This document shows positions 29,341 through 55,400 of a DNA stretch of 64,000 bases, one piece after another. The position numbers and the translations under genes were made by a program. Location: positions 374,075 through 438,074 of the forward strand of contig CAWHXD010000019.1 of NCBI GenBank assembly GCA_963833225.1. The letters run 5' to 3'. The notes below the pieces were generated by a model. That model saw nothing but the letters and a program-made list of their open reading frames with translations, had not been told where the DNA came from and searched no databases. Positions within the stretch are counted from its first letter, which is position 1, and each line of letters begins with the position of its first letter. Origin of the DNA: an uncultured Chloroflexia bacterium. Lineage in GTDB: Bacteria > Chloroflexota > Limnocylindria > Limnocylindrales > CSP1-4.

Positions 29341-29369
29341 GGGCCCCGGCGGAGGATCCGCCGGGGCCC
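29341..29369 (-). promoter_or_regulatory. perfect 12-bp-stem hairpin GGGCCCCGGCGG-aggat-CCGCCGGGGCCC between the SBP gene and rhaM
   Basis: Read directly. It is intercistronic, 12 nt after the SBP stop and 27 nt before the rhaM start. A near-identical stem core occurs at 45664-45696. Confidence 0.5.
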
Positions 29370-29380
29370 GGCTGGAGGAG

Positions 29381-30489: not shown

Positions 30490-30527
30490 GGGAGTTCCTC
30501 CTCTATGTCGATTACTGGCGCGCGTTC

Positions 30528-34891: not shown

Positions 34892-35104
34892 AAGGTTCGA
34901 CTCCAAGCGAAACGGGGAAGGTCGATTTCGAAACTTCGGTTGGTTGCGAATAGGAGCACTTTGCGACGGCGAGCGGGCTCTGTCAAGCGCAATCGCGCCA
35001 GAGATGCCTGGCCTGGGTTGAGTTGGCGCCGTCGGTCGCGTACGATGCGGTATCACAACCAATCGGAATGAGTCGTAACTACTCGGAGAGCAGGCGAACC
35101 GCAG

Positions 35105-41710: not shown

Positions 41711-41771
41711 TGCGTGACGGGCGCAGAATCGTCGTGCACAGACCTTGAGGGGTGCGGTACCGTTCGGTGGT

Positions 41772-41783
41772 GTTACCGGTAAC
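41772..41783. promoter_or_regulatory. perfect 12-bp palindrome GTTACCGGTAAC, candidate LacI-family operator
   Basis: Read directly, 76 nt upstream of the LacI-family ATG (41859). It has the central-CG symmetry typical of LacI/GalR operators. Confidence 0.5.
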
Positions 41784-41858
41784 CGACGCCGCTGGCCCGC
41801 TTCCCCTGCCCTCGATCTCCCTGCGGCCCTCCCGATCCGAACCCAGACCTCAGATCCC

Positions 41859-42905
41859 ATGAGCACCATCAGCGACGTTGCCAGGCGAGCCGGCGTGTCC
41901 GCGATGACCGTCTCGCGGGTCGTCAACGGCACCGGCTACACCAGCACGGAGACGCGCGCCCGCGTGGAGGCGGCCATCAAGGAGCTGGGCTACGTGCCCA
42001 ACGCCCTTGCCCGCCAACTGCGGTCGAAGCGCACCAAGACCCTCGCTCTCGTGGTCTCGGACATCTCCAACCCGTTCTTCACCACGATCGCTCGCGGCGT
42101 CGAGGACGTCGCGATGGCCCACGGCTTCTCGGTCATGTACGGCAACACCGACGAGTCCGAGGCCGAGGAGGAGCAGTACCTCCTGATGCTGGTCGAACGC
42201 CAGATCGACGGCATCCTCCTGGTGCCCACCCGGAGCTCCGGCGAGTCGTTCCGGCTCCTGCGCACCCACCACGTGCCGGTCGTCGTCCTGGACCGCCGGA
42301 TCGACGCCGGCGCCGTCGATACCGTGCGCTGCGATTCCGAGGCCGGTGCCCACGCGCTCACGAGGCACCTGCTCGAGCTCGGCCACCGCGACATCGCCGT
42401 GCTGACCGGCCGCGAGACCATCTCGACCTCCGTCGACCGCGTGGCGGGCTGCCGGCGAGCCATGGAGGAGGCCGGGCTCGACCTGCCCGGCGAGCGCGTG
42501 CAGTATGGCGGCTACATGTTCGGGAAGAGCCACCAGGCCGATGGCCACCGGATGGCGCAACGGGTCCTCGACGGCCTGGGCCTGCTGCCCACGGCCATGT
42601 TCTGTGCCAACAACTTCATCGCCTTCGGGGCGATCCGGGCGCTGCGCGAGCGAGGCCTGCGGGTGCCCGACGACATGAGCATCGTCGCCTTCGACGATCT
42701 GCCGGCGGAATGGGTCAGCGAGCCCTTCCTCACCTGTGCGGCCCAGCCCGCCTACGACATCGGGCACTGCGCCGCCGCGCGCCTCCTCGGCCACATCTCC
42801 GGCGAGCAGGTGCCCAGGGGCGAGTCCGTCGTGCTCCCGTACGAGCTGATCATCCGGCGGTCCAGCGGACCGCCGCGAACCATCGACCTGGTCGCCACGG
42901 GCTGA
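41859..42905 (+). CDS. LacI family transcriptional regulator
   Basis: MSTISDVARRAGVSAMTVSRVVNG HTH plus a periplasmic-binding-protein-like sugar domain. Confidence 0.9.
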   Translation: MSTISDVARRAGVSAMTVSRVVNGTGYTSTETRARVEAAIKELGYVPNALARQLRSKRTKTLALVVSDISNPFFTTIARGVEDVAMAHGFSVMYGNTDESEAEEEQYLLMLVERQIDGILLVPTRSSGESFRLLRTHHVPVVVLDRRIDAGAVDTVRCDSEAGAHALTRHLLELGHRDIAVLTGRETISTSVDRVAGCRRAMEEAGLDLPGERVQYGGYMFGKSHQADGHRMAQRVLDGLGLLPTAMFCANNFIAFGAIRALRERGLRVPDDMSIVAFDDLPAEWVSEPFLTCAAQPAYDIGHCAAARLLGHISGEQVPRGESVVLPYELIIRRSSGPPRTIDLVATG

Positions 42906-42938
42906 CCGTGCTCGAACCCATGACGTAAAGGAGGCCCG

Positions 42939-43358
42939 ATGCTCAAGACCCGCCTGCTTCACCCGGAGATCCTCGCCGCGCTCGGCGAGGCCGGCCACGG
43001 CGCCCAGGTGCTGATCGCGGACGGCAACTACCCGCTGGCCACGCGCTCCAACCCCGACGCCTACCGGGTGTTCCTCAATCTCGCGCCCGGCCAGCTCACC
43101 GTCACCGACGTCCTCGACGTCATCGCCGACGCGATCCCCATCGAGGCCGCCTGCGTGATGGGCCCCGACGATGACACGGAGCCGTCGATCTACGCGGACT
43201 TCCGACGGATCCTGCCGGACACGGAGCTCCAGCGGCTGGGCCGCTTCGAGTTCTACGACATGGCCAGGGGCCCGGACACGGCGCTCGCGATCGCCACCGG
43301 CGAGCAGCGCATCTACGCCAACATCCTGCTCACCATCGGGGTGGTGATGCCCGAGTAG
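42939..43358 (+). CDS. fucU: L-fucose mutarotase / RbsD-FucU family
   Basis: [27 protein letters not shown]...ERFEFYDMA...[14 protein letters not shown] is RbsD/FucU family. Lies directly upstream of fucI. Confidence 0.85.
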
Positions 43359-43410
43359 GGCAGGGCAGGTTTCGTTCACACCGCGTCCCAGGAACAAGAG
43401 GACCACGACC

Positions 43411-45216
43411 ATGACCACCGTCAACACGTCCGGCCGCTTCGTCGGGGACTGGCCCAGGATCGGTATCCGCCCCGCGGTCGACGGCCGCCAGCACGGCGTC
43501 CGTGAGTCGCTCGAGGAGCAGACCCGGAACATGGCGCTCCGGACGGCGGAGCTCATCCGCGCCAACCTGCGCTACCCGGACGGCACGCCCGTGGAGGTCG
43601 TGGTCCCCGACCACAACATCGGCGGCGTGTACGAGGCGGCCAAGGTTGCCGAGCTGTTCCGCAAGGAGGGCGTTGGCGTCTCGCTGACGATCACGCCCTG
43701 CTGGTGCTACGGCTCCGAGACGATGGACATGGATCCCCTGACCCCCAAGGCCGTATGGGGCTTCAACGGCACCGAGCGCCCGGGCGCTGTGTACCTCGCG
43801 GCGGTCCTCGCCGCCCACACCCAGAAGGGGCTGCCGGCGTTCGGCATCTACGGCCGAGACGTCCAGGACGCCGGCGACGGCACGATCCCTGACGACGTGC
43901 AGGCGAAGATCCTGCGCTTTGCGCGGGCCGGCATGGCCGCCGCGATCCTGCGCGGCAAGTCGTACCTGAGCCTCGGTGGCGTGTCCATGGGCATCGCCGG
44001 CTCGATCGTGGACCAGCCGTTCTTCGAGAAGTACCTGGGCATGCGTGTCGAGGCCGTCGACATGTCCGAGATCTACCGCCGGCTCGAGGAGGGGATCTAC
44101 GACCCGGTCGAGTTCGAGAAGGGTCTCGCCTGGGCCAGGGCCAACTGCCGCGAGGGTGTGGATCGCAACCCGGCCGACAAGGCCAAGACCCGCGAGGAGC
44201 TCGACCGCGACTGGGAGGTCGTGGTCAAGATGACCCTCATCGCGCGCGATCTCCTGGTGGGCAACCCGAGACTCGCCGAGCTCGGCTTCGGCGAGGAGGC
44301 GCTGGGCCGCAACGCGATCCTGGGCGGGTTCCAGGGTCAGCGGGCATGGACCGACCACAGCCCCAACGGCGACTTCATGGAGGCGATCCTCAACTCCAGC
44401 TTCGACTGGAACGGGATCCGCGCCCCGCACATGTTCGCGACCGAGAACGACTCGCTCAACGGCGCGACGATGCTGCTCTCCTACCTGCTGACCAACCGGG
44501 CCCAGATCTTCGCGGACGTCCGCACATACTGGAGCGCGGAGGCCGTGGAGCGGGTGACCGGGCACAGGCTCGAGGGTCTCGCCGCGGGCGGCTTCATCCA
44601 CCTCATCAACTCCGGCGCGGCGACGCTCGACGCCACCGGCGCGATGACGGACGCCGACGGCAAGCCGGCCATGAAGCCGTTCTGGGACATCACCGACGGC
44701 GACGTGAAGGCCGCGCTCGCGGCCACGACCTGGTACCCGGCCAACCGCGGCTACTTCCGCGGCGGCGGCTTCTCCAGCCAGTTCGTGTCCAAGGGCGGGA
44801 TGCCCGTCACCATGGCCCGCCTCAACCTCGTGAGCGGGACCGGACCCGTGCTCCAGATCGCCGAGGGCTGGACCGTGGACCTGCCCACGGATGTCCACGA
44901 CATCCTGGACCAGCGGACGGATCCCACCTGGCCCACCCACTGGTTCGTGCCGCGGACCACGGGCGAGGGCGTCTTCCGCGATGTCTACACCGTGATGGCC
45001 AACTGGGCCGCGAACCACGGTGCGATCAGCTACGGCCACATCGGTGCCGACCTGATCAGCCTGGCCTCGGTGCTCCGGATCCCGGTCCACATGCACAACG
45101 TGGCCGAGGAGGATCTCTTCCGACCCAGCGCGTGGGCCAACCTGGGCACGGCCGATCCGGAGGGCGCCGACTTCCGGGCCTGCGCCAGCTTCGGCCCGCT
45201 CTACGGTCGCAAGTAG
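43411..45216 (+). CDS. fucI: L-fucose isomerase
   Basis: 601 aa, colinear with FucI ([61 protein letters not shown]). Confidence 0.92.
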
Positions 45217-45306: not shown

Positions 45307-45630
45307 TCAGTCCTGGTGGAACAGCTCGTCCATCGACGCCCACCATTCGCCCTCGGCGCGGTCGGCGAGCGGCTCCTGGAGCGGCTTGTTGACCGCCCAC
45401 CACTCCTGGGTCGTGGGATCCTCGCCCATCCGGGCCATGTCTGCCTCGTAGTCCTCGCCGACGTACTCGAAGTAGCTGAACAGCCAGCCGCCGCGGTGGT
45501 AGATCGAGTAGTTGCGGATGTTGCACTCGGTGATCTTGGCGAGCACCGCCGGCCACACCGCGGCGTGGAGCTCGCCGTACCGGGCAAGGTTCTCGGGGGG
45601 CATGCGCAGCACGCTGGCGTACCTGGTCAT
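45307..45630 (-). CDS. L-rhamnose mutarotase family protein (second copy)
   Basis: MTRYASVLRMPPENLARYGELHAAVWPAVLAKITECNIRNYSIY...EWWASMDELFH (RhaM/YiiL family). GGAGG lies 8 nt upstream of ATG 45630. Confidence 0.85.
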   Translation of the reverse strand: MTRYASVLRMPPENLARYGELHAAVWPAVLAKITECNIRNYSIYHRGGWLFSYFEYVGEDYEADMARMGEDPTTQEWWAVNKPLQEPLADRAEGEWWASMDELFHQD

Positions 45631-45663
45631 CCTGGTGCCTCCACGATGCATGGGTGGGGGATT

Positions 45664-45696
45664 GGCGCCCGGCGGGGAGGAGGTCCGCCGGGCGCC
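45664..45696 (-). promoter_or_regulatory. perfect 12-bp-stem hairpin GGCGCCCGGCGG-9 nt-CCGCCGGGCGCC upstream of the second rhaM
   Basis: Read directly. On the mRNA strand the loop is ACCUCCUCC (anti-SD-like). The stem core CCCGGCGG/CCGCCGGG is shared with 29341-29369. Confidence 0.5.
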
Positions 45697-45711
45697 GTGA
45701 TCGACGGAGAG

Positions 45712-46902
45712 CTATTCCGCCGGCAGATGAAGCGGGTACGTCCCGTACTCGCGGACGAGCTTGACGATCTGGTCGTAGGTGTGACCCGACACGTCGCTCG
45801 CGACCGAGTGGTCGCTCATGAATACGTAGCCGCCGCCCTCGGCGGCGCGCAGCCGGTGGAGCACCTCGCGACGTACCTCGTCCGGATCGCCGCGCTCCCA
45901 GACGCGGATGTCGCTGTTGCCGCAGAACGTGAGCCGATGGCCCAGCCGCTCGCGGAGCGTGACGACGTCGAGGTCCGCCTTGGCCTCGAGCGGGTTGTAG
46001 CCGTCGAGCCCGATCTCGATCATGTCCTCGAAGATCGCGTTGGCGTTGCCGCACCCGTGGTACATGACCAGCAGGCCGTGCTGGTGGGCCAGCTCGATGA
46101 TCCGGGCGACCGTCGGCTTGTAGTACTTGCGCCAGTAGGTGGGGCCCATGAACAGGCTCTTGCCGTAGGCGACGTCGCCCCAGATGACGAGCCCGTCCAG
46201 GAGGCCGTCCGCCGCCTCGATCTGGGCCTTGGCGATCTCGTAGCTGAACTCGCCGATGCGAAGCAGCTGCTCGCCGAACCGCTCCGGGAACTCGCCGGTC
46301 CACATCAGGGTGTTGAGCTGGCCCAGGAGGCGCGTGCAGATCTCGGACGCCTCCGTGACGCTGCCGAACACCGGGAAGTCCGGGTACAGCCCCTTGACGG
46401 TCTCCACCCACGGCGGGCTGTTGCGCTCGAAGCCATCGCCCACGCCGGCGATCTGGTTGTCGCCGGCCTCGAAGTAGCGGCGCCGGTCGGTCGGGTCGTC
46501 GAACTCGAACGCCTCCAGCTTCTCGATCGTGTCCGTCTCCCAGCTCACCTGCTCGGGCATCGGCAGGTCGAAGCGCTTGCGGATCGTGGTCTCGAAGCCG
46601 GTCTTGACCACCACCTCCTCGTCGTCCTCGCGGATCGTCTCGAAGGCCCGGATGTGGGGATCCATGTTGGGGACGGTGGTGATGAAGTCGAGGTCGTAGT
46701 GGTAGTACGGATCGGCGTCGGCCGGCAGCCCCAGCTCCGTGCGCCACCGGTCACGGAACTGGCCCCAGAAGAAGTCCGTGATCGGGACGCGGTCCGCCTC
46801 CTGGTGCCCGAAGGTCTTCCGGATCCGGTCCAGCTTGGCCAGCGTCGAGGGCTTGCGGTCCGTGCCTCCGCCCCGTCCGTAGGTCTCGAACATGCCGGGC
46901 AT
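45712..46902 (-). CDS. uroporphyrinogen-decarboxylase (URO-D)/MtaA-family methyltransferase (methylcobamide-dependent type)
   Basis: 396 aa TIM-barrel-like sequence with an MtaA-style His/Cys metal motif (LVMYHGCGNA...LTFCGNSD). The ATG lies 4 nt after the corrinoid-protein stop. Confidence 0.7.
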   Translation of the reverse strand: MPGMFETYGRGGGTDRKPSTLAKLDRIRKTFGHQEADRVPITDFFWGQFRDRWRTELGLPADADPYYHYDLDFITTVPNMDPHIRAFETIREDDEEVVVKTGFETTIRKRFDLPMPEQVSWETDTIEKLEAFEFDDPTDRRRYFEAGDNQIAGVGDGFERNSPPWVETVKGLYPDFPVFGSVTEASEICTRLLGQLNTLMWTGEFPERFGEQLLRIGEFSYEIAKAQIEAADGLLDGLVIWGDVAYGKSLFMGPTYWRKYYKPTVARIIELAHQHGLLVMYHGCGNANAIFEDMIEIGLDGYNPLEAKADLDVVTLRERLGHRLTFCGNSDIRVWERGDPDEVRREVLHRLRAAEGGGYVFMSDHSVASDVSGHTYDQIVKLVREYGTYPLHLPAE

Positions 46903-46906
46903 CGGA

Positions 46907-47536
46907 TCAGCTCCCCGCCAACAGCTGCTTGGCCAGGTCCACCGCCGCACCCGCATCGGGAGCGAAGCCGTCGGCGCCGATCTGCTCGGCGAACTCGGGC
47001 GTGGTGGGCGCGCCACCGATCATCACCTTGGCACCGACGTCGGCGGCCTTGATGGCCTCCACCACGGCCCGCATGTTGGGCATCGTGGTGGTCAGCAGGG
47101 CGCTGAGGCCGATCAGGCGGGCGTCGTGCTCGCGGGCGGCCTCGACGAACTTGGCGGCGGACACGTTCACCCCGAGGTCGATGACCTCGATCGCCGCTCC
47201 CTTGAGCATCATGCCGACCAGGTTCTTGCCGATGTCGTGGAGGTCGCCCTCGACGGTCCCGATCACCGCCGTGTGCTCGGGCCGGATCCCGGCCTCCACC
47301 AGGCTCGGCTCGAGGATGGCCGTGGCTTCCTTCATCGCCCTCGCGGCGATGAGCATCTCGGGGACGAAGATCTCGCCCTCCTGGAACTTGCGGCCGATGA
47401 CCCCCATCGCCTCGGTCATCGCATCCAGGATCTCCTGGGCCGATACGCCCGCCGCCAGGGCCTCGGTTGTCAGCCGGGCCGCCGATGCCCGGTCGCCTGC
47501 CTCGATCGCCCTGCCCAGCTCGCCCAGGTCAGCCAT
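46907..47536 (-). CDS. corrinoid (cobalamin-binding) protein
   Basis: N-terminal helical B12-binding_2-like cap, then GTVEGDLHDIGKNLV (DxHxxG), SALLTTT (SxL) and MIGGAP. 209 aa. RBS GAGAGGAG. Confidence 0.88.
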   Translation of the reverse strand: MADLGELGRAIEAGDRASAARLTTEALAAGVSAQEILDAMTEAMGVIGRKFQEGEIFVPEMLIAARAMKEATAILEPSLVEAGIRPEHTAVIGTVEGDLHDIGKNLVGMMLKGAAIEVIDLGVNVSAAKFVEAAREHDARLIGLSALLTTTMPNMRAVVEAIKAADVGAKVMIGGAPTTPEFAEQIGADGFAPDAGAAVDLAKQLLAGS

Positions 47537-47598
47537 GTCTGTGACTCCTCTCGATACCAGGGTCGCGGTGGCCGCTCGTGGCCCCGCTCGCCCCGGGG

Positions 47599-48921
47599 TT
47601 ATGCCTTGGCCAGCCGCATGGCGACGTCGACCCACTCCCAGAGCCGTCGTGCGTCGTAGCGGATCGTGCTGACGTCCTTGAGGATCAGCTCCACCGGTGT
47701 CCCGGTGCGCCGGCACGCGTCGATCGTTGCCTGGAGCTCCTTCTCGACTGCCTCGGGCTCCCAGCTGTCCATCGCGAGGAGCGCCGGGTTGGGCTTGCGC
47801 GAGAACACGAAGTCGGGACCCATGCTCTCCGCGCCACGGTCCACGTTGACCCACGGGCACATCGAGATCTTCCGGACGTTGGGGATCTCCCGGATGATGT
47901 CGATCCGCCGGTCGAGCACGTCGCAGCAGCCGTAGTAGCCGAGCCCGAACCGCTCGTACCAGCGGACGGTGTACGGGATCTCGTACTCCTTGAACATCGC
48001 CGGCGAGGCGGAGGTGAAGACCTGCGCCATGCCCATCGTCCACAGGTCCTCGGCCCGCGGTCGCTCCGGGTCGAAGCCCTCGTGCGGCAGATCGTCGGTC
48101 CAGGCCGGCGTGCAGTGGACCGTGGACATCGAGTGCCCGAGCAGGCCCTGCGCCTCCATCTGGTCGAGCATGCCGAGATACGCGGTCACCAGGCGGTCGA
48201 TGATCCGGCGCGTATGGTCCGGGCGATCCGCCATGTCGATCAGGATGGCCTCCGCGCCTCGCCAGAACTCGATGGTGTCCCAGAAGTTCGCCCCGCCCGC
48301 CAGCAGCTCCGTCGGCCAGTCGTGCACCAGGGCCCGCGTCTCGGGCTGGGACTCGAGGCCGGGCCACTGGTTGGTGCTCGGCACCCAGCCCTGGAGACGG
48401 ACGGGCAGCACGCCGTCGAAGATGTCGTGCGCCTGGGCCTCGATCCGGGCGGTCTCCTCGGCATCGAGCCAGACCTTCGGGGTCCGGATCTTGTCGGCGT
48501 CCGACTCGTTCGCGAGCTGGTCGATGAAGTGGTGGGAGACGATGTCGTTGCGGGCGTCGACGGCCTCGGTCTCCTCGACCATCTCGATCCCGAAGCCATC
48601 CAGGCGGAGGACCTTCGGGATGAGCAGCACCGGCTCGACCACCATGTCCGCGCGTATGTGCTCCCAGCGATACAGGGTGCGGCGAAGATCGATCTCGAGC
48701 CCGCGATTGAATGGGTCCGTGCACTGGTTGACCAGCATCGGATCATCGGCCAGCTCGTGCCAGGGCAGCTGGTCCAGCGCCACCATCGGGCGCTGCGGAT
48801 GCAGGTCGTTGACCGCCTTCCAGAGCGAGATGGTCTCCTGCTGGACGGGCAGCGCCGCGATCTCGGCGACGCGGCTTCCGAGCTCCCGCAGGATCTCGCG
48901 GTCCCGGGCTACCCCGGCCAT
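47599..48921 (-). CDS. conserved hypothetical protein; positional candidate for the substrate-specific methyltransferase of the corrinoid system (possibly a distant URO-D-like barrel)
   Basis: 440 aa. ATG 48921 lies 6 nt after GGAGGAG. Codon usage looks coding, and Cys-containing blocks are present (YYGCCDVLD, ISMCPW). The family was not securely recognised by eye. Confidence 0.5.
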   Translation of the reverse strand: MAGVARDREILRELGSRVAEIAALPVQQETISLWKAVNDLHPQRPMVALDQLPWHELADDPMLVNQCTDPFNRGLEIDLRRTLYRWEHIRADMVVEPVLLIPKVLRLDGFGIEMVEETEAVDARNDIVSHHFIDQLANESDADKIRTPKVWLDAEETARIEAQAHDIFDGVLPVRLQGWVPSTNQWPGLESQPETRALVHDWPTELLAGGANFWDTIEFWRGAEAILIDMADRPDHTRRIIDRLVTAYLGMLDQMEAQGLLGHSMSTVHCTPAWTDDLPHEGFDPERPRAEDLWTMGMAQVFTSASPAMFKEYEIPYTVRWYERFGLGYYGCCDVLDRRIDIIREIPNVRKISMCPWVNVDRGAESMGPDFVFSRKPNPALLAMDSWEPEAVEKELQATIDACRRTGTPVELILKDVSTIRYDARRLWEWVDVAMRLAKA

Positions 48922-49218
48922 ATGCCACTCCTCCAGGACGCCTGTATCGTCAACCCTGGGCCGCCGCGGGCCCGTCCGCGACACCTCAAGGGTGCAAGAC
49001 TACCATAATCGGCCGTTGGTATATCGATTTTTCGCGCCATTCGTGGCACCATTCAGGCACCGCGACGTGCGTGACCCGGGCGATCTCCGCACGAATGGGG
49101 AGGACATGAGCCAGACGCTGACAAGGCACCCGGATACGGTGAATGGAGGACCGATGGTTCGTCATGGGCCAGAAGTCACGCGTGATAGCGATCCCAGCCA
49201 CTGCTCGCTGGCCGATCC

Positions 49219-50508
49219 ATGCCCGGCCACGAGGCCCGGGCTGTGACCCCGGCCACGGTCCGCCTCGCCTTTGGTCGAGATGGCCTCGAGATCGACGTGC
49301 CGGCCGGCGTGGACGTGCTCCTGCCACGGGCCCGGGTACCGCTCGCCGACCCTGGGGCGGCGCTCCGGGCGGCGCTGGCCGCGCCGGCGACGGCCCATCC
49401 GCTGCCGGAGCTGGCGCCGATCGGCAGCACCGTGGCGGTGAGCGTCTGTGACGTCACGCGTCCGTTTCCATCGCGGGTGGTCCTCCCGGTGCTCCTCGAT
49501 CAGCTCCCGGGCCGGCACGTGCGGCTGGTGATCGCCACCGGAAGTCATCGCGCGTGCACGGACCGGGAGCTCGAGGCGATGCTCGGACCCCGGGTTCTCG
49601 CCAGGTGCGAGGTGGTCCAGCATGATGCGGATGACCCTGCCGCCCATGTCACGCTGGGAACGGTGCCCGGCTCGGATGTGCCGGCCCGCGTCGATCGCCG
49701 GTTCATCGAGGCGGATGTCCGGGTCACGCTGGGATTCGTGGAGCCCCACTTCTTCGCGGGGTTCTCCGGCGGACCCAAGATGGTGGTTCCCGGCCTGGCC
49801 GGCATCGACACCATCCGCGAGCTGCATTCGGTGGCCCGGATCGCCAGCCCCCACGCGACGTGGGGCGTGCTCGACGGCAACCCGGTCCATGATCCGATCC
49901 GGGCGATTGCCGCCCGCGCCGGCGTGGACTTCGCGCTCGACGTCGCGCTCGACGAGGGGAACCGGATCTCCGCCGTCTTCTCGGGGTCGCTGGAGGCCGA
50001 GCACCGCGAGGCATGCGCCGACGTCCGCCAGACGGCAATGGTCGGCGTCGCGGAGCCGTACGACGTCGTCGTCACGACCAACAGCGGGTATCCGCTGGAC
50101 CAGAACCTCTACCAGTGCGTGAAGGGCCTCAAGGCCGCGGCGGGGATCGTGCGCGACGGTGGCACGATCATCCTGGCTGCGGCCTGCGAGGACGGGCTGC
50201 CAGCCCACGGCCGCTACGCGCACCTGCTGGCGAGCGCGCCCGGACCGGCCGAGTTCCTCGCGGCCCTCTCCCGAGGGGAGATCTCGGAGCGGGACCAGTG
50301 GCAGGTGCAGGTGCAGGCGGGGATCCAGGCGCGCGCTCGCGTCCTCGCCCACACGCCCGGCCTGGGCGCCGAGGATCTGCGGAGGGCGTGGCTTCAGGCG
50401 GCGGATGACGTGGCGGTCGCCCTGCGGGACGCCCTCGCGGTGGCCGGTCCGGGGGCGCGTGCGGCGATCCTGCCAGTCGGTCCCCAGACGATCGCGTATG
50501 TGACCTGA
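49219..50508 (+). CDS. larA: LarA-family nickel-pincer-dependent 2-hydroxyacid racemase/epimerase homolog (DUF2088)
   Basis: VIATGSHR, GFVEPHFFAGFSGGPKMVVPG (cofactor-Lys block), TTNSGYPLDQNLYQCVKG. The exact start is uncertain (ATG 49219 or a downstream GTG). Confidence 0.8.
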   Translation: MPGHEARAVTPATVRLAFGRDGLEIDVPAGVDVLLPRARVPLADPGAALRAALAAPATAHPLPELAPIGSTVAVSVCDVTRPFPSRVVLPVLLDQLPGRHVRLVIATGSHRACTDRELEAMLGPRVLARCEVVQHDADDPAAHVTLGTVPGSDVPARVDRRFIEADVRVTLGFVEPHFFAGFSGGPKMVVPGLAGIDTIRELHSVARIASPHATWGVLDGNPVHDPIRAIAARAGVDFALDVALDEGNRISAVFSGSLEAEHREACADVRQTAMVGVAEPYDVVVTTNSGYPLDQNLYQCVKGLKAAAGIVRDGGTIILAAACEDGLPAHGRYAHLLASAPGPAEFLAALSRGEISERDQWQVQVQAGIQARARVLAHTPGLGAEDLRRAWLQAADDVAVALRDALAVAGPGARAAILPVGPQTIAYVT

Positions 50509-50576
50509 GCCCGTTCGTTTGACATGCCAACGTCCGCTGTCTACCGTGGACAAACGTTGTTTCAGAGGAGCCGACC

Positions 50577-51446
50577 TTGACCGTCATCGACGCCCACCAG
50601 CACTTCTGGAACCCGAGCCGCGTCGCCTATGACTGGCTGGGACCGGATCTGGGCCCGATCAACCGGGCCATCGAGTTTGCGGACCTGGAGCCGCTGCTTG
50701 CGGCCACGGGCGTGGAACGCACGGTCCTCGTCCAGTCGGCGGACAACGCAGCCGACACCGACTTCATGTTCGAGATCGCGGCCGCGCACCCCGAGATCGC
50801 GGCCGTGGTCGGCTGGGTCCCACTCGATGATCCGGTTGCCACGGCGGAGCGCCTCCCGGTGTTGCTCGCGAACCCGGTGTTCGCCGGGATCCGCAACCTG
50901 ATCCATACGCAGCCCGATCCCGACTGGCTGCTGAGGCCCGACGTGGATGAGTCCCTGGGCCTCCTCGCTGCCCGGGACGTGCCGTTCGACGTCGTATCGG
51001 TCCTGCCCCGGCACCTGGAGCACGTCCCGACCCTGTCCGAGCGACACCCCGAGCTCCGGATGGTCATCGACCATCTCTCCAAGCCGCCCATCAAGGCCGC
51101 GAGCGACGAGCCCTGGCGGTCCCTCATCGCTCGCGCGGCCGAGAACCCGCTCGTGTTCGCCAAGGTCTCGGGTCTGTACCCGTCCGTCGGCGACATGGCC
51201 GCCTGGACAGCGGACGACGTGCGGCCCTATCTGCACACGGCCCTCGAGCTGTTCGGCGCCAAGCGCCTCATGTTCGGTGGCGACTGGCCGATCTCGGTGC
51301 TGGCCGGTGGGTACGTGCGGGTGTGGGAGAACCTGAGCAGCCTGTTCGACGAGCTGTCGGCCGAAGACCGGGAAGCCATCCTGGGTGGGACCGCGGCGCA
51401 GTTCTATGGAATCCCGGCGGGCCGGCTCCCGGGAGGCGGCGCGTGA
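50577..51446 (+). CDS. amidohydrolase-2 family sugar lactonase (L-fucono-/L-rhamnono-lactonase-like)
   Basis: IDAHQHFWNP...VLVQ...IDHLSKPP...FGGDWP is the signature of the COG3618 lactonase group. Confidence 0.75.
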   Translation: MTVIDAHQHFWNPSRVAYDWLGPDLGPINRAIEFADLEPLLAATGVERTVLVQSADNAADTDFMFEIAAAHPEIAAVVGWVPLDDPVATAERLPVLLANPVFAGIRNLIHTQPDPDWLLRPDVDESLGLLAARDVPFDVVSVLPRHLEHVPTLSERHPELRMVIDHLSKPPIKAASDEPWRSLIARAAENPLVFAKVSGLYPSVGDMAAWTADDVRPYLHTALELFGAKRLMFGGDWPISVLAGGYVRVWENLSSLFDELSAEDREAILGGTAAQFYGIPAGRLPGGGA

Positions 51447-52525
51447 TCACGCGGTTTGATCCCGTCGCCGAGGCCTGCCGGATCGAGGTCCCCGACGCCC
51501 ATCGACGGCCGATCGCCATCGTCGGCGCCGGCGCCATCGTGGACTTCGCGCACCTGCCGGCCTATCGCGCCGCCGGCCTCGAGGTTGCCGGGATCCACAA
51601 CCACCATCCCGCGCGGGCCGTCGACGTGGCCGGCCGTCACGGTGTGCCGCGGGTCTACGAGACGCTCGAGGACCTGCTTGGCGACGACCGGGTCGAGGTG
51701 GTGGACGTCGCCGTGTCCGCGGCCGCCCAGCCCGAGATCGTGCGCCGGGCGCTCGAATCGGGGCGCCACGTGCTAGCCCAGAAGCCGTTCGCACCGGATC
51801 CGGCCACCGGCCAGGCGCTGGTGGACCTCGCCGAGTCGCGCGGGCTGGTCCTGGTCGTGAACCAGCAGCTCCGCTTCGACGAGGGGATGGCCGCGGCCCA
51901 CCGGATGGTCGAGCTGGGCTGGATCGGCGACGTCACCGCGATGTCGATCACGGTCAACATCTGGACGGACTGGCATTCCTGGCCATGGATGCTCGAGACA
52001 CCCCGGCTGGAGGTGATGGTCCATTCGATCCACTATCACGACGTGATCCGCTGGTTCCTGGGCGAGCCGTCGCTCGTGTTCAGCGTCGGAGGCCGCACGC
52101 CGGGCCAGGCGCCCGTCGGGGAGACGCGGACCGTGACCACGTCCACCTATCCGTCCGGCGCGATCTCCGTGGTCCACGCCAACCACGAGAACGGCACCGG
52201 TGACAACCTCGCGACGTTCCGCATCGATGGCTCGCGGGGTGCGATCCGGGGCACCCTGGGCCTGCTCTACGACTACCCCAGCGGGCGGCCGGACACCCTG
52301 GAGATCAGCAGCGAGGTGCTGCCGACTGACGGCTGGGTCCCCTATCCGGTGGGCTCACGCTGGCTGCCCGACGCGTTCCTGGGGCCTATGGCGTCGCTGC
52401 TGCGGGCGGTCGCCACCGGGTCCACGCCCCGTTCCAGCGGCCGCGACAACGTGGGCACGCTGCGGCAGATCCAGCGGATCTACGAATCGATGGAGCGGGG
52501 AGCGGCGGTCCGGGTCGAGGGCTGA
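51443..52525 (+). CDS. Gfo/Idh/MocA family NAD(P)-dependent oxidoreductase (candidate sugar 1-dehydrogenase)
   Basis: IAIVGAGAIV...HVLAQKPFA Rossmann/EKP-like motif. GTG 51443 overlaps the lactonase stop (GTGA). Confidence 0.8.
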   Translation: MITRFDPVAEACRIEVPDAHRRPIAIVGAGAIVDFAHLPAYRAAGLEVAGIHNHHPARAVDVAGRHGVPRVYETLEDLLGDDRVEVVDVAVSAAAQPEIVRRALESGRHVLAQKPFAPDPATGQALVDLAESRGLVLVVNQQLRFDEGMAAAHRMVELGWIGDVTAMSITVNIWTDWHSWPWMLETPRLEVMVHSIHYHDVIRWFLGEPSLVFSVGGRTPGQAPVGETRTVTTSTYPSGAISVVHANHENGTGDNLATFRIDGSRGAIRGTLGLLYDYPSGRPDTLEISSEVLPTDGWVPYPVGSRWLPDAFLGPMASLLRAVATGSTPRSSGRDNVGTLRQIQRIYESMERGAAVRVEG

Positions 52526-52536: not shown

Positions 52537-52998
52537 TCAGGCGGGTGCCGACCCGCGCTTCTCGACGACGTACAGGTGGACGAGGACGAGCACCACCTCG
52601 CCGGCCTGGTTGGTCACGGTCACCGTCTCCTCGACCATGCCCAGCGCCTCGGGTCGCCGGCGGTGGTCGGCCAGGCCCGTGATCTCGGCTCGCACCGTGA
52701 TCGTGTCACCGATGAACACGGGCCGCACGAACCGGACCCGATCGTAGCCGTAGCTCATCGCCCGGGGGTTGATGTCGCCCGCCGTCATGCCCACGGCCAT
52801 CGACATCACGAGCGTGCCATGTGCCATCCGGCGCTCGAAGGCCTGCGTGGCGCACCACTCGGCGTCCATGTGGTGGGGGAAGAAGTCGCCGGTCTGCCCG
52901 GCGTGCAGGACGATGTCGGCCTCGGTCACGGTCCGGCCCGTGGTCGTCCGGCTGGTGCCGGTGACGTAGTCCTCGAAGAACGCCTCAACCGTGTTCAT
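52537..52998 (-). CDS. MaoC-like (R-specific enoyl-CoA hydratase / hot-dog fold) dehydratase
   Basis: 153 aa: [23 protein letters not shown]...AHGTLV...[15 protein letters not shown] overlap with the upstream gene. Confidence 0.85.
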
Positions 52999-54143
52999 GT
53001 CGCGGTCTCCTCCTCCCGTGCCCGGGCGACCACCCGGTCGGCCGCCTCCAGGCAGGCCGCGTCGGTCAGCTCACCGCGCAGGGCCCGGTTGACCAGCCCG
53101 CCCACCTCGTCCTGGACCTGCAGCCAGCCATCGAACCGGGGCCGCACCCAGGCGCCGTCCAGCGTCCGCCGCGTGCCGCGGAAGAACCCCAGGCTGTCGG
53201 CGTCGACCGCCTCGTCGTCCCAGGCGTCGATGTTGGCCGGCTGGCCGCCGCTGGCGTAGTAGACGCCGCGCTGGACCTCGCCGCTCGCGAGCCAGAAGGC
53301 ATGGTCGACGGCAATCTCCGGCTGCGGCGAGAAGGCCGACACCGCGATCCCGGCGCCACCCAGGCAGGAGCCGGCGACGCCCCGGGGACCGGCGGGCATG
53401 TCCACGTAGGCGAGGCGGTGGGCACGGAACCCGGCACGGCTGTAGTTCGTATAGCCGAAGGCGAGCGGCGCGTAGCACCAGCGATCATCAGTGGCGAGGC
53501 GTTCCGCAGCCTGGATCGGGTTCTCGTCGAGGCATGCCGGATCGACCAGCTCCGCGAGGTGGTGCAGGTCCTCGAGGATGCCCTCGCCGTCCCCGCGGGC
53601 GATGAACCCGTCCCCGGCGATCGCGGCGCCGCGGTTTGCCGCGAGCGTCAGGAAGCTCGAGATGGCGTCCACCGGCTTGGCCGGCCAGACGACCCTGCCC
53701 GTGCGTGCGAGCTCGAGCACCTCGTCCCACGTCTTCGGCGGCACGGGCAGCAGATCGGGGCGATGGATGGCCACCTGGGCCGCGGCATCGATCGCGAGGC
53801 CGTACTGGTGACCGGCGTGCGCATAGGTCGCGTGTGACGGGCCGACGGCCTGCGTCGCGAGGGCCGCAAGCTCCACGTCACGACCGCACGTGTCGAGCGC
53901 GGCGAGGAGCCCGGCTGTCGCCGCGTGCGGGATGTGCGGATGGTCGATCACCATCAGGTCGTACGTCCGGGCGAGGGTCTCGAGCGGCTGGTCGGCGAAC
54001 CCCTGGAGCGATCGGGCCTCCCACTCCACCCGCACGCCGGGGTGGAGCGAGCTGTAGGCCTCCGCCGCCCCCCGCACGCTGTCCAGGCCGCGCGGATGGT
54101 CCCACGTCATGCCTCGGAGAACCGCCGGCAGCGGATCGCTCAT
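52995..54143 (-). CDS. solute-binding-protein-like protein without signal peptide (cytoplasmic), unknown function
   Basis: 382 aa. The N-terminus [19 protein letters not shown] has no hydrophobic or lipobox segment. Overall SBP family-1-like pattern (LMVIDHP..., WDEVLELA..., GGAGIAVS). ATGA overlaps on both sides. Confidence 0.55.
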
Positions 54144-55390
54144 GCGCCCGCCGCGTCGTCGATGGGACGGAGGTCCAGCTCCGCGTCGATGGACGCCGTG
54201 TGCTCGCCCAGCCGCGGGGCGCCCCGGTCGCCGCCCAGCGTGCCGTGGTCGATCCGCAGCGGGCTCCGGGTCGTGTGCAGGGTCACCTCGCCGTCGCCCG
54301 TAGCCGAGGGCCGTCGCACCACCCGGTCCATCGCCAGGGCATGGAACCCCTCGTGGCCGACGAGATCGGGCAGCGTGAGCACGGGAGCGCACCACACGTC
54401 CGCCGGCTCCAGGATGTCGAGCCAGTCGCGGGTCGGGCGCGTGGACAGGTGGGCCGCCAGCAGGTCCTCGATCCGCTCCCGCTCCGTCCACCACGTCTCG
54501 GGGTCGCCGAATGCCGACAGGGCATCGAGCCCGATGAGCTCGCCGAGCCGCGGCACCGAGTTCATCGCGAGCGCGAGGTACCCGTCCGCGGTGGGGTAGA
54601 CGCCGTACGGGGCGGCGAGGAAGGCGTTGGCCCCGTGCGGTCCACCGCGGTCAACGAGCACCGACGGATCGTTCAGGTGGGCGCTGAGGAGCTCGAACTG
54701 GAGGTCGAGCATTCCCTCCATCAGGCTGGTCTCCACCAGGCCACCCTTGCCGGTGCGCTCACGGCGCAGGAGCAGCGCCGTGATGCCCTGCGCCAGGTGG
54801 ACCGAGGCGAGCAGGTCCGCGATCGACAGCCCGACCGGCACCGGCCCGTGGTCCCGGCTCCCGCTGAGCCACGGCAGGCCCGACATCGACTGCGCGAGCA
54901 GGTCCTGGCCGGGCAGGTCGCGCCACGGCCCATCGGGCCCGTAGCCGCTCACGCTCCCGTAGACCAGGCGCGGGTTGAGCGCCCGCGCGGATTCGAAGTC
55001 CAGCCCGATGCGCTCCATGACCCCCGGCCGGAAGTTCTGGATGAGCACGTCGGCGCGGGCCACGAGCCGGCGGATGGCCGCCAGGTCGGACGCGTTCTTG
55101 AGGTCGGCGGCGTAGCTCTCCTTGCCGCGGTTCATGATCTGGAACGAGAGGGTGTCGCCGTCGAGGAACTTGCCGGCGAAGGCGAGCGTGCGCCCGATGT
55201 CGCCGACCCCGGGACGCTCGATCTTGATCACCCGGGCCCCGAGATCGGACAGCCGCATCGCGGCGACGGGCCCGGCGAGGAACTGGCTGAAGTCGAGGAC
55301 CAGGATGCCGTCCAACGGCGGGATCGGCACCTTCCGGGCTCCCTCGCGTGCGGCACCCATCCGTGCTCCTCCCTCGTCGGCTCGGTTCAT
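54140..55390 (-). CDS. family III CoA-transferase (CaiB/BaiF/Frc family)
   Basis: PLDGILVLDFSQFLAGPVAAMRLSDLGARVIKIERP...NRGKES...VLIQNFRPG...GYG...GQDLLAQ is canonical. Confidence 0.88.
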   Translation of the reverse strand: MNRADEGGARMGAAREGARKVPIPPLDGILVLDFSQFLAGPVAAMRLSDLGARVIKIERPGVGDIGRTLAFAGKFLDGDTLSFQIMNRGKESYAADLKNASDLAAIRRLVARADVLIQNFRPGVMERIGLDFESARALNPRLVYGSVSGYGPDGPWRDLPGQDLLAQSMSGLPWLSGSRDHGPVPVGLSIADLLASVHLAQGITALLLRRERTGKGGLVETSLMEGMLDLQFELLSAHLNDPSVLVDRGGPHGANAFLAAPYGVYPTADGYLALAMNSVPRLGELIGLDALSAFGDPETWWTERERIEDLLAAHLSTRPTRDWLDILEPADVWCAPVLTLPDLVGHEGFHALAMDRVVRRPSATGDGEVTLHTTRSPLRIDHGTLGGDRGAPRLGEHTASIDAELDLRPIDDAAGA

Positions 55391-55400
55391 CACGTCCTCG

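Follow-up and report, generated by a model that had tools for sequence, protein, structure and literature searches.

In a soil-type, respiring-type Chloroflexota genome, a corrinoid (B12-binding) protein is encoded between two URO-D-fold proteins, X440 and UroD396, amid genes for fucose catabolism. We tentatively read these three components (together, the triad) as an O2-independent corrinoid O-demethylase for a methylated 6-deoxyhexose, likeliest O-methyl-L-fucose, and give this reading slightly less than an even chance. A sequence-only reading had earlier proposed a B12-dependent deoxyhexose O-demethylase here. Its anatomy and sugar link are borne out in the window (the whole 64-kb stretch analyzed) and in related loci, but fucose is now favored over rhamnose, and it is from gene order, folds, motifs and conserved neighborhoods that we infer methyl transfer, its substrate, the split into half-reactions and the methyl acceptor.

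Anatomy of the triad

The triad and its surroundings comprise the following features:

47599-48921, minus strand: X440, 440 aa, ATG with GGAGGAG ahead
46907-47536, minus strand: corrinoid (B12-binding) carrier, by sequence of the MtgC/MtbC/MetH type, 209 aa, PF02607 and PF02310
45712-46902, minus strand: UroD396, URO-D family, 396 aa, PF01208
45664-45696, minus strand: conserved GC hairpin at the triad 3′ end, 12-bp stem, 9-nt loop ACCUCCUCC, no U tract
45307-45630, minus strand: putative FucM-type (RhaM-fold) L-fucose mutarotase paralog, 107 aa, GGAGG RBS, PF05336 at 103 bits
48994..49037, minus strand: promoter/operator-like block upstream of the triad, GCGAAAAATCGATATACCA-N11-TGGTAGTCT
41745-42905, plus strand: LacI regulator (Pfam)
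42939-43358, plus strand: FucU (Pfam)
43411-45216, plus strand: FucI, L-fucose isomerase (1039 bits against an NCBIfam equivalog cut-off of 775)
49219-50508, plus strand: LarA-like protein (Pfam), in the divergent operon 49219..52525
50577-51446, plus strand: Amidohydro_2, lactonase-like protein (Pfam), same operon
about 51440-52525, plus strand: GFO/IDH/MocA dehydrogenase (Pfam), same operon
29000-29314: second, canonical rhaM, in the rhamnose cluster of the window

The minus-strand gene string stands as originally read, including its coordinates, the GGAGGAG RBS and the tight spacing. Its intergenic gaps are 62 nt and then 4 nt (the UroD396 ATG lies 4 nt past the corrinoid-protein TGA), with an RBS before each gene. 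A GC3 frame bias of 0.92-0.94 backs the three resolved frames, the corrinoid-protein gene forming no separate ORF in that analysis.

The motifs claimed for the corrinoid protein can be read directly in its translation: GDLHDIGKN (DxHxxG), GLSALL (SxL) and MIGGAP (GG). HMM searches are likewise positive for its cap and Rossmann domains (PF02607 at 69 bits, PF02310 at 100 bits). The top NCBIfam matches are MtgC (184 bits), pyl_corrinoid (158 bits) and MtbC (157 bits), all under their equivalog cut-offs, and the MetH B12 domain scores 121 bits, against only 36 bits for CarH. By these profiles, it is a carrier of the methyltransferase type (MtgC, MtbC, MetH), not of the CarH or mutase type.

UroD396 scores 68 bits against PF01208 (cut-off 24) and 37-48 bits against MtaA-family models (cut-offs 235-400). 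Neither UroD396 nor X440 reaches any curated MtaA/MtbA/CmuA threshold in NCBIfam-type models. While the URO-D-family assignment holds for UroD396, its proposed HGCG...FCG metal motif does not: the ‘FCG’ cysteine (C327) is rejected as a ligand, being variable in the family and aligned to ‘LVG’ of MtaA. The conserved candidate ligands instead follow the pattern HxC...E...DH (H282-x-C284, E306, D364-H365), in which the H-x-C of MtaA is kept and the invariant D-H falls at the position of the UROD ‘GHG’, with H365 aligned to its His. In MtaA, we take this position to be the second Zn-Cys, ‘GCG’. The Zn sphere of UroD396 is predicted from conserved residues to have His/Asp rather than Cys as its third ligand. 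Within the UroD superfamily, a His-Cys-Cys sphere marks S-methyltransferases, and O-methyltransferases miss one or both Cys (PMC10418091). UroD396 is our candidate for the sugar-side (methyl-sugar:corrinoid) methyltransferase.

X440 matches no Pfam or NCBIfam family and is a divergent URO-D/MtaA-fold (beta/alpha)8 protein, which rules out a glycosidase or other unrelated enzyme, upholds its earlier placement in a corrinoid system and gives the string corrinoid methyl-transfer anatomy. Profile-profile alignment with UroD396 reaches only 2% probability, so that the active site of X440 is not mappable from sequence; we regard the protein as a candidate corrinoid methyltransferase. As the sequence-only reading had stated, a RamA-like activase and a pterin-binding domain are missing: the 64-kb window holds no RACE/RamA activase, pterin-binding (folate-type) methyltransferase, B12 gene or cobalamin riboswitch.

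Conserved neighborhoods and the link to fucose

The triad is flanked, as described earlier, by fucU-fucI on one side and LarA, lactonase and dehydrogenase genes on the other. The LacI-FucU-FucI block (41745..45216, plus strand) is convergent with the triad side, and the divergent LarA-Amidohydro_2-GFO/IDH/MocA operon probably encodes an oxidative (non-phosphorylating) sugar route, by analogy with a described pathway (PMC11199699). Between this operon and the triad lies the block at 48994..49037, with inverted arms TACCA/TGGTA at 49001-49021. It is the sole conserved non-coding block in the X440-upstream alignment (window, L003, L016, L017 and L019), with CGATATACCA at the equivalent spot in the four relatives, and this conservation suggests a promoter/operator role. 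The site occurs once in the window (chance expectation 0.01) and was not found at fucUI.

Triad order is kept in at least nine Chloroflexota loci (L001-L004, L009, L016, L017, L019, L022), and every close-clade locus has the corrinoid protein lodged between the two enzymes, with the 4-nt stop-start spacing. The neighbors across related loci are fucI/fucU, LacI, sugar ABC transporters or the LarA-lactonase-dehydrogenase operon. FucI, FucU, LacI, sugar ABC transporters or PfkB adjoin in the window, L001, L004, L016, L017, L099 and L100, with FucI near the triad in L001, L004, L016 and L017; the divergent LarA arrangement recurs in L003, L016 and L017, and relatives add RraA-like genes beside the divergent neighbors. 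Synteny with sugar genes is conserved in related genomes, although not in L101, discussed below.

Orthologs of UroD396 (66-72% identity) are found in Verrucomicrobiota, Planctomycetota and two further contigs. In all four loci they directly precede a RhaT-family symporter gene, followed in three by FucM, giving URO-D-RhaT-FucM operons next to AraC, with genes for GH29 fucosidase, GH106 rhamnosidase, GH2 and sulfatases in the vicinity. This shared arrangement suggests that the link between URO-D enzyme and mutarotase is older than is seen in the window. In L103, such an operon has a gene resembling X440 (35% identity) at a distance of 5.5 kb. None of the four distant UroD396 loci has a corrinoid protein within 10 kb; of the 48 X440 loci whose flanks total 10 kb or more, only 7 have one within that distance, and the immediate neighbors of 40 distant X440 loci include no consistent partner gene. 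The wider families therefore need not depend on B12: at these distant loci the URO-D enzymes may manage with no B12 carrier of their own, or may have an activity other than methyl transfer.

The mutarotase, previously called RhaM-family, does have the RhaM fold, but its subtype is better described as FucM: it matches the L-fucose mutarotase 7BYU/7BYW at E 4e-32, against about 2e-3 to 6e-3 for RhaU/YiiL. Its identity to the rhaM genes downstream of URO-D-RhaT in L102-L104 is 58-61%, against 35% to the canonical rhaM of the window, which points to a URO-D-linked FucM subfamily and shifts the likeliest substrate from methyl-rhamnose to methyl-fucose. The hairpin ahead of this gene is real: the 81-nt intergenic stretch that holds it folds at -38.6 kcal/mol (z = -3.9), and a counterpart with compensatory stem changes follows the UroD396 stop in L003, L004, L016 and L017. 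A consensus terminator scan does not call it because it has no T run, and it is probably a U-less terminator or mRNA-end stabilizer. Since it marks the end of the triad with either rhaM or a dehydrogenase gene next in line, and rhaM sits elsewhere in L001, rhaM is no fixed operon member; the claim that it is the last gene of the operon fails in that form, and separate transcription is suggested.

Proposed reaction and alternatives

In the proposed reaction, a methyl-sugar would enter the cell and be held by UroD396 at its predicted Zn site (His282, Cys284, His365, possibly Glu306 or Asp364), where the metal would polarize the ether oxygen. Attack on the methyl carbon by Co(I) of the corrinoid protein would yield CH3-Co(III) and free L-fucose, and X440 would hand the methyl group to an acceptor, a thiol being one possibility. 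The FucM-type mutarotase and FucU would then anomerize L-fucose, which would continue either through the neighboring FucI or along the oxidative route of dehydrogenase, lactonase and dehydratase. The nearest chemical precedent is methanol activation by MtaB, which breaks an aliphatic C-O bond with Co(I) and Zn; apart from this, we know of no characterized precedent for aliphatic methyl-ether cleavage by Co(I).

We favor demethylation because a methyltransferase-type corrinoid protein sits between two URO-D-fold proteins at spacings of 62 and 4 nt, because the close clade keeps both triad order and sugar neighbors, because UroD396 retains H-x-C with D-H and its distant orthologs join RhaT, FucM and fucosidase/rhamnosidase genes, and because of the X440-like gene in L103. 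It is weakened by the distant loci lacking a corrinoid protein or, for X440, a consistent partner, by the absence of activase and acceptor enzyme from the window, by the sugar-free L101, and by the mutarotase, for which the non-phosphorylating fucose pathway (PMC11199699) already offers an ordinary function and which appears to be separately transcribed.

It is unlikely, but worth weighing, that the URO-D-fold pair are not methyltransferases and instead convert a fucose-type sugar or sugar acid by another reaction (e.g. isomerization, epimerization or decarboxylation) that needs no cofactor or else a metal, with the Chloroflexota B12-binding protein as a lineage-specific accessory or regulatory part. 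The absence of a corrinoid protein within 10 kb of the distant UroD396 orthologs and most X440 relatives fits this explanation, as do the H365 alignment with UROD and the resemblance of URO-D-RhaT-FucM to a set of transporter, mutarotase and first catabolic enzyme. It accounts poorly for the invariant position and spacing of the corrinoid protein in the close clade, its methyl-carrier type (MtgC 184 against CarH 36 bits) and the H-x-C metal motif shared with MtaA, which UROD, to our knowledge, lacks. Furthermore, with a bona fide FucI, as well as FucU, RhaI-type genes and a complete rhamnose cluster, the genome already has isomerases and does not need the URO-D enzymes for that purpose; we also know of no URO-D-fold sugar isomerase.

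We consider it distinctly improbable that the triad is a genuine corrinoid methyltransferase with a non-sugar donor (a lignin/plant aryl methyl ether, a methylated thiol or a methylated amine) and that the fucose genes are merely its neighbors in a catabolic island. All characterized URO-D-type MT I enzymes known to us have aryl methyl ethers, methylthiols or chloromethane as their substrates, and in L101 X440 and the corrinoid protein lie beside IclR, RraA-like, HpcH, Ldh_2, Amidohydro_2, Aldedh and TPP genes in a neighborhood free of sugar genes. The GFO/IDH/MocA and Amidohydro_2 neighbors, with the RraA-like genes of relatives, also belong to the families from which LigC, LigI/J and LigK of protocatechuate 4,5-cleavage are drawn, and the operator-like site is not common to the triad and fucUI. 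However, the window yielded neither a ring-cleavage dioxygenase nor any further gene of aromatic metabolism, the tight UroD396-RhaT-FucM operons (3/4 distant loci) lie beside fucosidase, rhamnosidase and sulfatase genes, and in L001, L099 and L100 the triad or the X440-corrinoid pair is bordered by LacI, PfkB and sugar ABC transporter genes.

Very unlikely as the main role is methyl capture or movement rather than the unlocking of a carbon source, for example transfer to homocysteine or another thiol for methionine or methyl-sulfur salvage: the MetH-like B12 domain (121 bits), the invariant G-C-C of X440 (C332, C333), which is similar to the GGCC Zn motif found in homocysteine S-methyltransferases, and the SelA and SelB genes adjoining a URO-D gene in L100 are consistent with it, but it concerns the acceptor side only and is compatible with sugar demethylation, the conserved neighbors are catabolic sugar genes and the UroD396 metal sphere is not His-Cys-Cys. 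A similar role in methyl-S/Se metabolism has been proposed for mlp clusters, which combine several URO-D paralogs with a corrinoid protein (PMC10418091); the triad is absent from these anaerobe-only, RACE-containing clusters as defined.

Comparison with known systems

Aryl-methyl-ether O-demethylases (Odm/Vdm of Acetobacterium dehalogenans, MtvABC of Moorella, MtoABCD of Methermicoccus; PMC8630106, PMC6739815) resemble the triad in their clustered genes for a URO-D-superfamily methyltransferase and an MtaC-like corrinoid protein, and in the attack of Co(I) on an O-methyl group that we propose. They rely on a pterin-binding MT II, with tetrahydrofolate as its acceptor, as well as on an ATP-dependent activase; both are absent from the window, and the second triad enzyme is another URO-D-fold protein without a Pfam family. 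Demethylation by the triad would release a sugar alkoxide instead of phenolate, and the setting is fucose catabolism in a respiring-type genome. Among proteins of solved structure, MtaA (MtaA/MtbA, PDB 4ay7) is closest to UroD396 in sequence, with aligned H-x-C Zn motif and a fold common to UroD396 and X440, but UroD396 scores far under the MtaA cut-offs and differs in its predicted third Zn ligand, and unlike MtaABC, the window has no MtaB-family protein or coenzyme M context.

Type 1 mlp clusters (Kountz and Balskus, PMC10418091) likewise place several URO-D-superfamily paralogs around one corrinoid protein, have no folate methyltransferase and owe their proposed function to context. They carry a Ram/RACE activase, His-Cys-Cys Zn spheres and an S/Se link in obligate anaerobes (mostly Firmicutes), whereas the triad has no activase, a different metal sphere, a sugar context and the Pfam-less X440 family. 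For the fucose side, the non-phosphorylating pathway (PMC11199699) matches the window in its L-fucose mutarotase and in its dehydrogenase, Amidohydro_2 lactonase, altronate-dehydratase, SDR and FAA-hydrolase families; it differs in that the mutarotase subfamily shares an operon with a URO-D enzyme and RhaT-type symporter in other phyla, an association not found in the literature searched.

The physiological role we propose, methyl-ether removal for sugar catabolism, is that of the P450 6-O-methyl-D-galactose demethylase of marine Bacteroidota, an unrelated enzyme encoded in polysaccharide-utilization contexts that releases formaldehyde by O2- and NAD(P)H-dependent hydroxylation (PMC6292453). 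No P450 is present in the window; in L018, one shares a sugar cluster with a URO-D gene and X440. In agreement with the sequence-only reading, our literature search found this P450 as the only carbohydrate demethylase (PMC6292453), and neither a corrinoid triad of this kind or one assigned to methyl-sugars nor an enzyme demethylating methyl-fucose or methyl-rhamnose. If our reading is correct, the triad would supply an enzyme for a reaction that has none in that literature: the B12-dependent removal of methyl groups from fucose-type sugars.

The triad and its genomic setting

The window has a GC content of ~70%, and its real reading frames were chosen by third-position GC bias. The triad comprises three minus-strand genes, here called X440, the corrinoid protein and UroD396, and a mutarotase gene follows them:

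47599-48921, minus strand: X440, 440 aa; ATG after GGAGGAG; no Pfam or NCBIfam match
46907-47536, minus strand: corrinoid protein, 209 aa; B12-binding_2 and B12-binding domains (Pfam)
45712-46902, minus strand: UroD396, 396 aa; URO-D domain (Pfam); ATG 4 nt past the corrinoid-protein TGA
45307-45630, minus strand: triad-side rhaM, 107 aa; GGAGG RBS; rhaM domain (Pfam)

Coordinates, Pfam domains and RBSs bear out the four-gene string described in a sequence-only reading of this DNA. The context claimed there, with fucU-fucI on one side and a LarA/lactonase/dehydrogenase set on the other, agrees with the Pfam domains and the FucI score (1039 bits; equivalog cut-off 775): one flank is LacI-FucU-FucI and the other carries LarA-like, Amidohydro_2 and GFO/IDH/MocA genes. 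Database records label these proteins 'hypothetical', 'uroporphyrinogen decarboxylase', 'methionine synthase' and 'L-rhamnose mutarotase'.

The nearest genomes with the triad are Chloroflexota MAGs (Limnocylindrales, Chloroflexia). Among the loci from other genomes that carry X440 or UroD396 relatives (L001-L105), the order X440-corrinoid protein-UroD396 is kept in L001, L002, L003, L004, L009, L016, L017, L019 and L022. The neighbours of the triad vary, yet they are sugar genes: FucI/FucU (L001, L004, L016, L017), a LacI regulator (L001, L009), a divergent LarA-lactonase-dehydrogenase operon (L003, L016, L017), or extra URO-D paralogs and an ABC transporter (L016). Linkage to sugar genes in related genomes, a question raised by the earlier reading, is thus kept among the Chloroflexota loci. 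Of the relatives of 61-73% identity, L021, L100 and L101 retain the X440-corrinoid pair. In L100 it lies amid LacI, PfkB, sugar ABC transporter and several URO-D genes; in L101 the neighbourhood consists of IclR, RraA-like, HpcH, Ldh_2 and Amidohydro_2 genes and is devoid of sugar genes. In L099, X440 has no partners and adjoins a sugar ABC transporter and LacI.

Two of these loci contain further genes of interest. Directly past a URO-D paralog in L100 (14212-16607) lie genes for SelA (selenocysteine synthase) and SelB (elongation factor); mlp gene clusters reportedly tend toward genomes with selenocysteine biosynthesis and decoding machinery (PMC10418091). In L018 (4541-6966), a cytochrome P450 gene adjoins a URO-D gene within a sugar cluster of ABC transporter, LacI-like, SDR, KDPG-type aldolase, ADH and PfkB genes, with an X440 homolog (61% identity) at its end. 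This cluster may combine two demethylation routes, P450 being a known carbohydrate demethylase type.

Several other regions of the window were recorded:

49219-50508, plus strand: LarA homolog (lactate-racemase family), heading an operon with a lactonase-like Amidohydro_2 and a GFO/IDH/MocA dehydrogenase gene; also in L003, L016 and L017
52537-56615, minus strand: conserved set (also L016 1117-6207, L017 1269-6320) of altronate/galactarate-dehydratase family, family III CoA-transferase and MaoC dehydratase genes, with an SBP_bac_8 solute-binding-like gene embedded among these cytoplasmic enzymes
8904-12838, minus strand: multihaem cytochrome c, NrfD-like membrane subunit and 4Fe-4S dicluster genes
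16975-19370, ~2.4 kb: long ORFs at 17031-18206 (plus) and 17551-18864 (minus), with no Pfam match

From where it sits, the LarA homolog could be a C2-epimerase that acts on an aldonic acid, for instance along a 6-deoxyhexonate route; genes for cofactor synthesis (LarB, LarC or LarE) were not found in the window. The set at 52537-56615 has RraA-like and SAF genes ahead of it in relatives, and hints that a sugar-acid product passes through a CoA-dependent branch. The 8904-12838 module resembles alternative complex III or a polysulfide reductase, and points to a respiring host, not a strict fermenter.

UroD396 and rhaM are separated by 81 nt containing a perfect 12-bp GC hairpin (45664-45696, minus strand; loop ACCUCCUCC) without a U tract, and this gap folds at a dG of -38.6 kcal/mol (z = -3.9). 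This hairpin recurs 3′ of the UroD396 stop in L003, L004, L016 and L017, with compensatory stem changes, and the gene past it is either rhaM (window, L016) or a GFO-family dehydrogenase gene (L004, L017). Because the hairpin is kept whichever gene comes next, and the L001 rhaM sits elsewhere, next to an ABC transporter, the hairpin belongs to the 3′ end of the triad, and rhaM is a frequent neighbour. The claim that rhaM is the last gene of the operon thus stands in part: it adjoins the triad in the window and in L016, but the hairpin ends the triad and rhaM is not a fixed member. The loop, A(C/U)CU(C/U)CUCC in the window, L003, L004, L016 and L017, is complementary to a GGAGG Shine-Dalgarno sequence. 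When the gap is folded to minimum free energy, the rhaM RBS also pairs, with the last part of the UroD396 ORF; this could couple termination or transcript stability to translation of the next gene. Rfam models, those of cobalamin riboswitches included, gave no match above threshold in the window; the only hit below it, to ar14 (26.8 bits against 58.8), overlaps the hairpin and was treated as chance.

Consensus promoters and terminators had no match between 45000 and 49400, as expected in a 70% GC genome with U-less hairpins. A short-range inverted-repeat scan of the triad intergenic region for an operator shared with fucUI or the ABC transporter found nothing, and a TACCA-N11-TGGTA site, a conserved footprint, was found nowhere but in the triad/LarA region. 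These scans speak neither for nor against co-regulation of the triad and the fuc genes.

The corrinoid protein and two URO-D-fold proteins

The corrinoid protein matches PF02607 (helical cap, 69 bits) and PF02310 (Rossmann B12-binding domain, 100 bits), and its translation contains GDLHDIGKN (DxHxxG), GLSALL (SxL) and MIGGAP (GG), as the sequence-only reading had said. Its top NCBIfam models are methyl carriers (MtgC 184, pyl_corrinoid 158, MtbC 157 and MetH 121 bits), and it qualifies as the corrinoid protein of a three-component methyltransferase system. A primary role as a CarH/AerR-like light or B12 sensor was rejected, as CarH scores only 36 bits against 184 for MtgC.

UroD396 scores 68.1 bits against PF01208 (gathering score 23.9) and belongs to a family of at least 4,989 relatives among 8,000 candidates scored. 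The 26 members compared, some of them from MAGs named Planctomycetota, Verrucomicrobiota and Akkermansiaceae, are 65-91% identical to the window protein, with a mean column identity of 79%. H282, C284, E306, D364 and H365 are among the invariant residues. Its best solved sequence relative is MtaA (4ay7), and the UroD396 'YHGCGN' (H282-x-C284) aligns to the H-x-C zinc motif 'LHICGN' of that enzyme. The second half of the 'HGCG...FCG' metal motif proposed earlier does not hold up: C327 of 'FCG' is Val in one family member and aligns to 'LVG' in MtaA. The invariant D364-H365 ('SDHSV') aligns instead to 'LGHGV' of Bacillus subtilis UROD, a position that we take to be that of the second zinc cysteine ('GCG') of MtaA. 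The predicted metal sphere of UroD396 is His-Cys-His (plus Glu or Asp), not His-Cys-Cys. In the URO-D superfamily, His-Cys-Cys sites belong to S-methyltransferases, while in O-methyltransferases one or both Cys are replaced (Kountz and Balskus, PMC10418091); a Cys as third Zn ligand marks the former, and a carboxylate or other ligand the latter (PMC10418091). The alignment thus gives one URO-D-fold component of the triad an MtaA-like putative metal motif of the non-thiol type, which is consistent with an oxygen-binding site without proving one. UroD396 lies outside the clades of known substrate covered by the MtaA, MtbA and CmuA equivalogs, with scores of 47.7 (cut-off 244), 37.2 (400), 30.8 (235) and 27.9 bits (600). 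The flanking enzymes could have proved to be members of such clades; all these curated cut-offs are widely missed.

X440 has at least 2,793 relatives among 8,000 candidates scored, none of them named. It has no PF01208 match at E <= 0.01, although a precomputed one exists for a few of its homologs, and a profile search of PDB sequences returned nothing meaningful; fold comparison alone was informative. An AlphaFold model built with 30 homologs (pLDDT 91.4, pTM 0.90) matched only uroporphyrinogen decarboxylases and MtaA (methylcobalamin:CoM methyltransferase) in a Foldseek search of the PDB, with probability 1.0. Since all matches are of this kind, the model places X440 in the URO-D superfamily as a highly divergent member, and not among the glycosidases or other unrelated enzymes that the sequence-only reading had allowed for. 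Both URO-D-fold proteins of the triad have the (beta/alpha)8 fold. The invariant residues of X440 include C332, C333 and H130; aligning the X440 family profile to that of UroD396, in order to transfer the metal site, gave a probability of 2% and was unusable.

Among the 48 X440 loci whose flanks total 10 kb or more, seven contain a corrinoid protein and 17 other URO-D paralogs. GH78/GH116-like, GH123 and GH127 genes adjoin X440 in Armatimonadota and other loci. A Pfam census of 129 immediate neighbours of distant X440 relatives (40 loci) was heterogeneous (URO-D 4, sulfatase 2, AraC 2, etc.) and gave no consistent partner or functional signal. Arrays of three to five divergent URO-D paralogs, ~25-43% identical to each other where compared, surround X440 in L045 (1666-7576), L092 (2-11141), L021 (2808-9505) and L100 (354-14062), the last two with two corrinoid-protein genes each; these arrays suggest family expansion for multiple substrates.

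The mutarotase and UroD396 relatives in other phyla

The triad-side rhaM scores 102.7 bits against PF05336 (threshold 23.4) and 30.5 against TIGR02625, the L-rhamnose mutarotase equivalog (cut-off 99.6), which makes it by profile score a PF05336 superfamily member and not a YiiL equivalog. Its nearest characterised relative is the L-fucose mutarotase FucM (7BYU/7BYW, E 4e-32, 114 bits); the rhamnose mutarotases RhaU and YiiL reach only 2e-3 and 6e-3. The earlier assignment to a RhaM-type family therefore holds at the superfamily level, but the protein is of the fucose type. A second, canonical rhaM in the window, 35% identical to the first, has the opposite preference, for rhamnose over fucose mutarotases, and belongs to a rhamnose-type cluster:

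24029-38364: canonical rhamnose-type cluster, with SorC-like regulator, class II aldolase, xylose-isomerase-like TIM barrel, FGGY kinase, ABC transporter (Peripla_BP_4, BPD_transp_2, ABC_tran) and DeoR regulator genes
29000-29314: canonical rhaM within this cluster (Pfam)
about 36169-38364: aldolase_II-SDR fusion within this cluster

The families of the non-phosphorylating fucose pathway, known from the FucM work, are all present around the triad.

Four distant UroD396 orthologs were examined: L102 (Verrucomicrobia, 70% identity), L103 (67%), L104 (Planctomycetes, 66%) and L105 (72%). In all four, the gene directly past UroD396 encodes a RhaT-family sugar/H+ symporter; three of them have a FucM-type rhaM next, with 58-61% identity to the triad-side rhaM. 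L102 and L103 have a divergent AraC regulator, and genes for GH29 alpha-L-fucosidase, GH106 alpha-L-rhamnosidase, GH2 and sulfatases are among the neighbours. UroD396 is thus tied deeply across phyla to the uptake and anomerisation of a fucose-type sugar. None of the four loci has a corrinoid protein within 10 kb; in L103, an X440-like gene (35% identity) lies 5.5 kb from the URO-D-RhaT-FucM operon. At 19293-21203 in L102, 8-10 kb away from the URO-D-RhaT-FucM operon of that locus, are genes for FolD and a PduO-type cob(I)alamin adenosyltransferase (PF01923), perhaps by coincidence.

A candidate sugar O-demethylase

The triad is a conserved operon with the anatomy of corrinoid methyl transfer, in which two URO-D-fold genes flank a corrinoid protein; a methyltransferase role for either we infer from fold and motifs. 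We tentatively read the triad as a corrinoid O-demethylase of a methylated fucose-type sugar, with a confidence that stays a little under the balance. An O-methyl-6-deoxyhexose, most likely methyl-L-fucose, would be demethylated, and the freed fucose would be handed to the adjacent FucI route and an oxidative route. UroD396, being linked to transporter and mutarotase genes, would act on the sugar side, and X440 would perform the second half-reaction, passing the methyl group to an acceptor. By analogy, the system would work like the anaerobic aryl-ether O-demethylases and MtaABC, without their MT II (acceptor-side methyltransferase) and activase, and it belongs to none of the curated families.

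The demethylase reading is weakest on two counts: neither an activase nor an acceptor enzyme was found with the triad, and beyond the Chloroflexota clade no corrinoid protein is linked. Scans of the ORFs in the 64-kb window found no RACE/RamA activase, pterin-binding methyltransferase, folate gene or B12 gene, and the flanks of the relatives examined held no RamA/RACE activase. For the methyl acceptor, the window ORFs scanned likewise had no pterin-binding domain and the MtaA, MtbA and CmuA cut-offs were unreached; the sequence-only reading had already noted that both parts are absent from the window. The URO-D-fold enzymes might instead carry out other, B12-independent sugar chemistry, which would suit the distant operons of URO-D, transporter and mutarotase genes; with a corrinoid protein kept between the two genes in nine loci, we consider this unlikely. 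That the corrinoid system takes its methyl group from a donor other than a sugar, as in the established systems and compatible with the setting of L101, is less probable again, given the sugar genes beside the triad. A methyl-salvage role, which would bear mainly on the acceptor, is the least probable.

The type 1 mlp gene cluster was also considered as an explanation and rejected. Such clusters are found only in anaerobes and have a RACE activase and His-Cys-Cys sites (PMC10418091), whereas the triad has no activase and another predicted metal sphere, and the multihaem cytochrome c, NrfD and Fe-S genes of the window point to a respiratory host. The literature searched contained no paper on corrinoid or URO-D enzymes with methyl-sugars, in line with the earlier claim that no corrinoid system is assigned to them, and none on URO-D-RhaT-rhaM operons. 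The sole carbohydrate demethylase found there is the O2-dependent P450 specific for 6-O-methyl-galactose, which the sequence-only reading had cited correctly (PMC6292453).

Returning to the demethylase reading, its wider form is more tentative: UroD396 and X440 might be founding members of two large unannotated families that, with a corrinoid carrier, form an O2-independent, B12-dependent sugar O-demethylase, the first corrinoid methyltransferase on an aliphatic carbohydrate methyl ether, used by Chloroflexota, Planctomycetota and Verrucomicrobiota on methylated fucose- or rhamnose-type sugars of plant, algal and microbial glycans. What we propose as new is an enzyme family and a substrate class within corrinoid methyltransferase systems. 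The URO-D-RhaT-FucM operon found across phyla offers a simple three-gene experimental target.

Methyl ethers on sugars hinder glycosidases and catabolic enzymes. Pectin RG-II, for example, contains 2-O-methyl-fucose, glycans of algae, mosses and bacteria contain methyl-rhamnose and methyl-fucose, and mycobacterial glycolipids also have methylated sugars. A B12 route, if true, would account for the recycling of methylated deoxyhexoses, also at low oxygen, and would bring carbohydrate ethers within reach of corrinoid methyl transfer, beside aryl ethers and C1 compounds. Thousands of genes labelled 'hypothetical', or wrongly 'uroporphyrinogen decarboxylase' or 'methionine synthase', would gain a function, and polysaccharide breakdown by the Chloroflexota, Planctomycetota and Verrucomicrobiota that abound in soil and sea would come with a need for B12.
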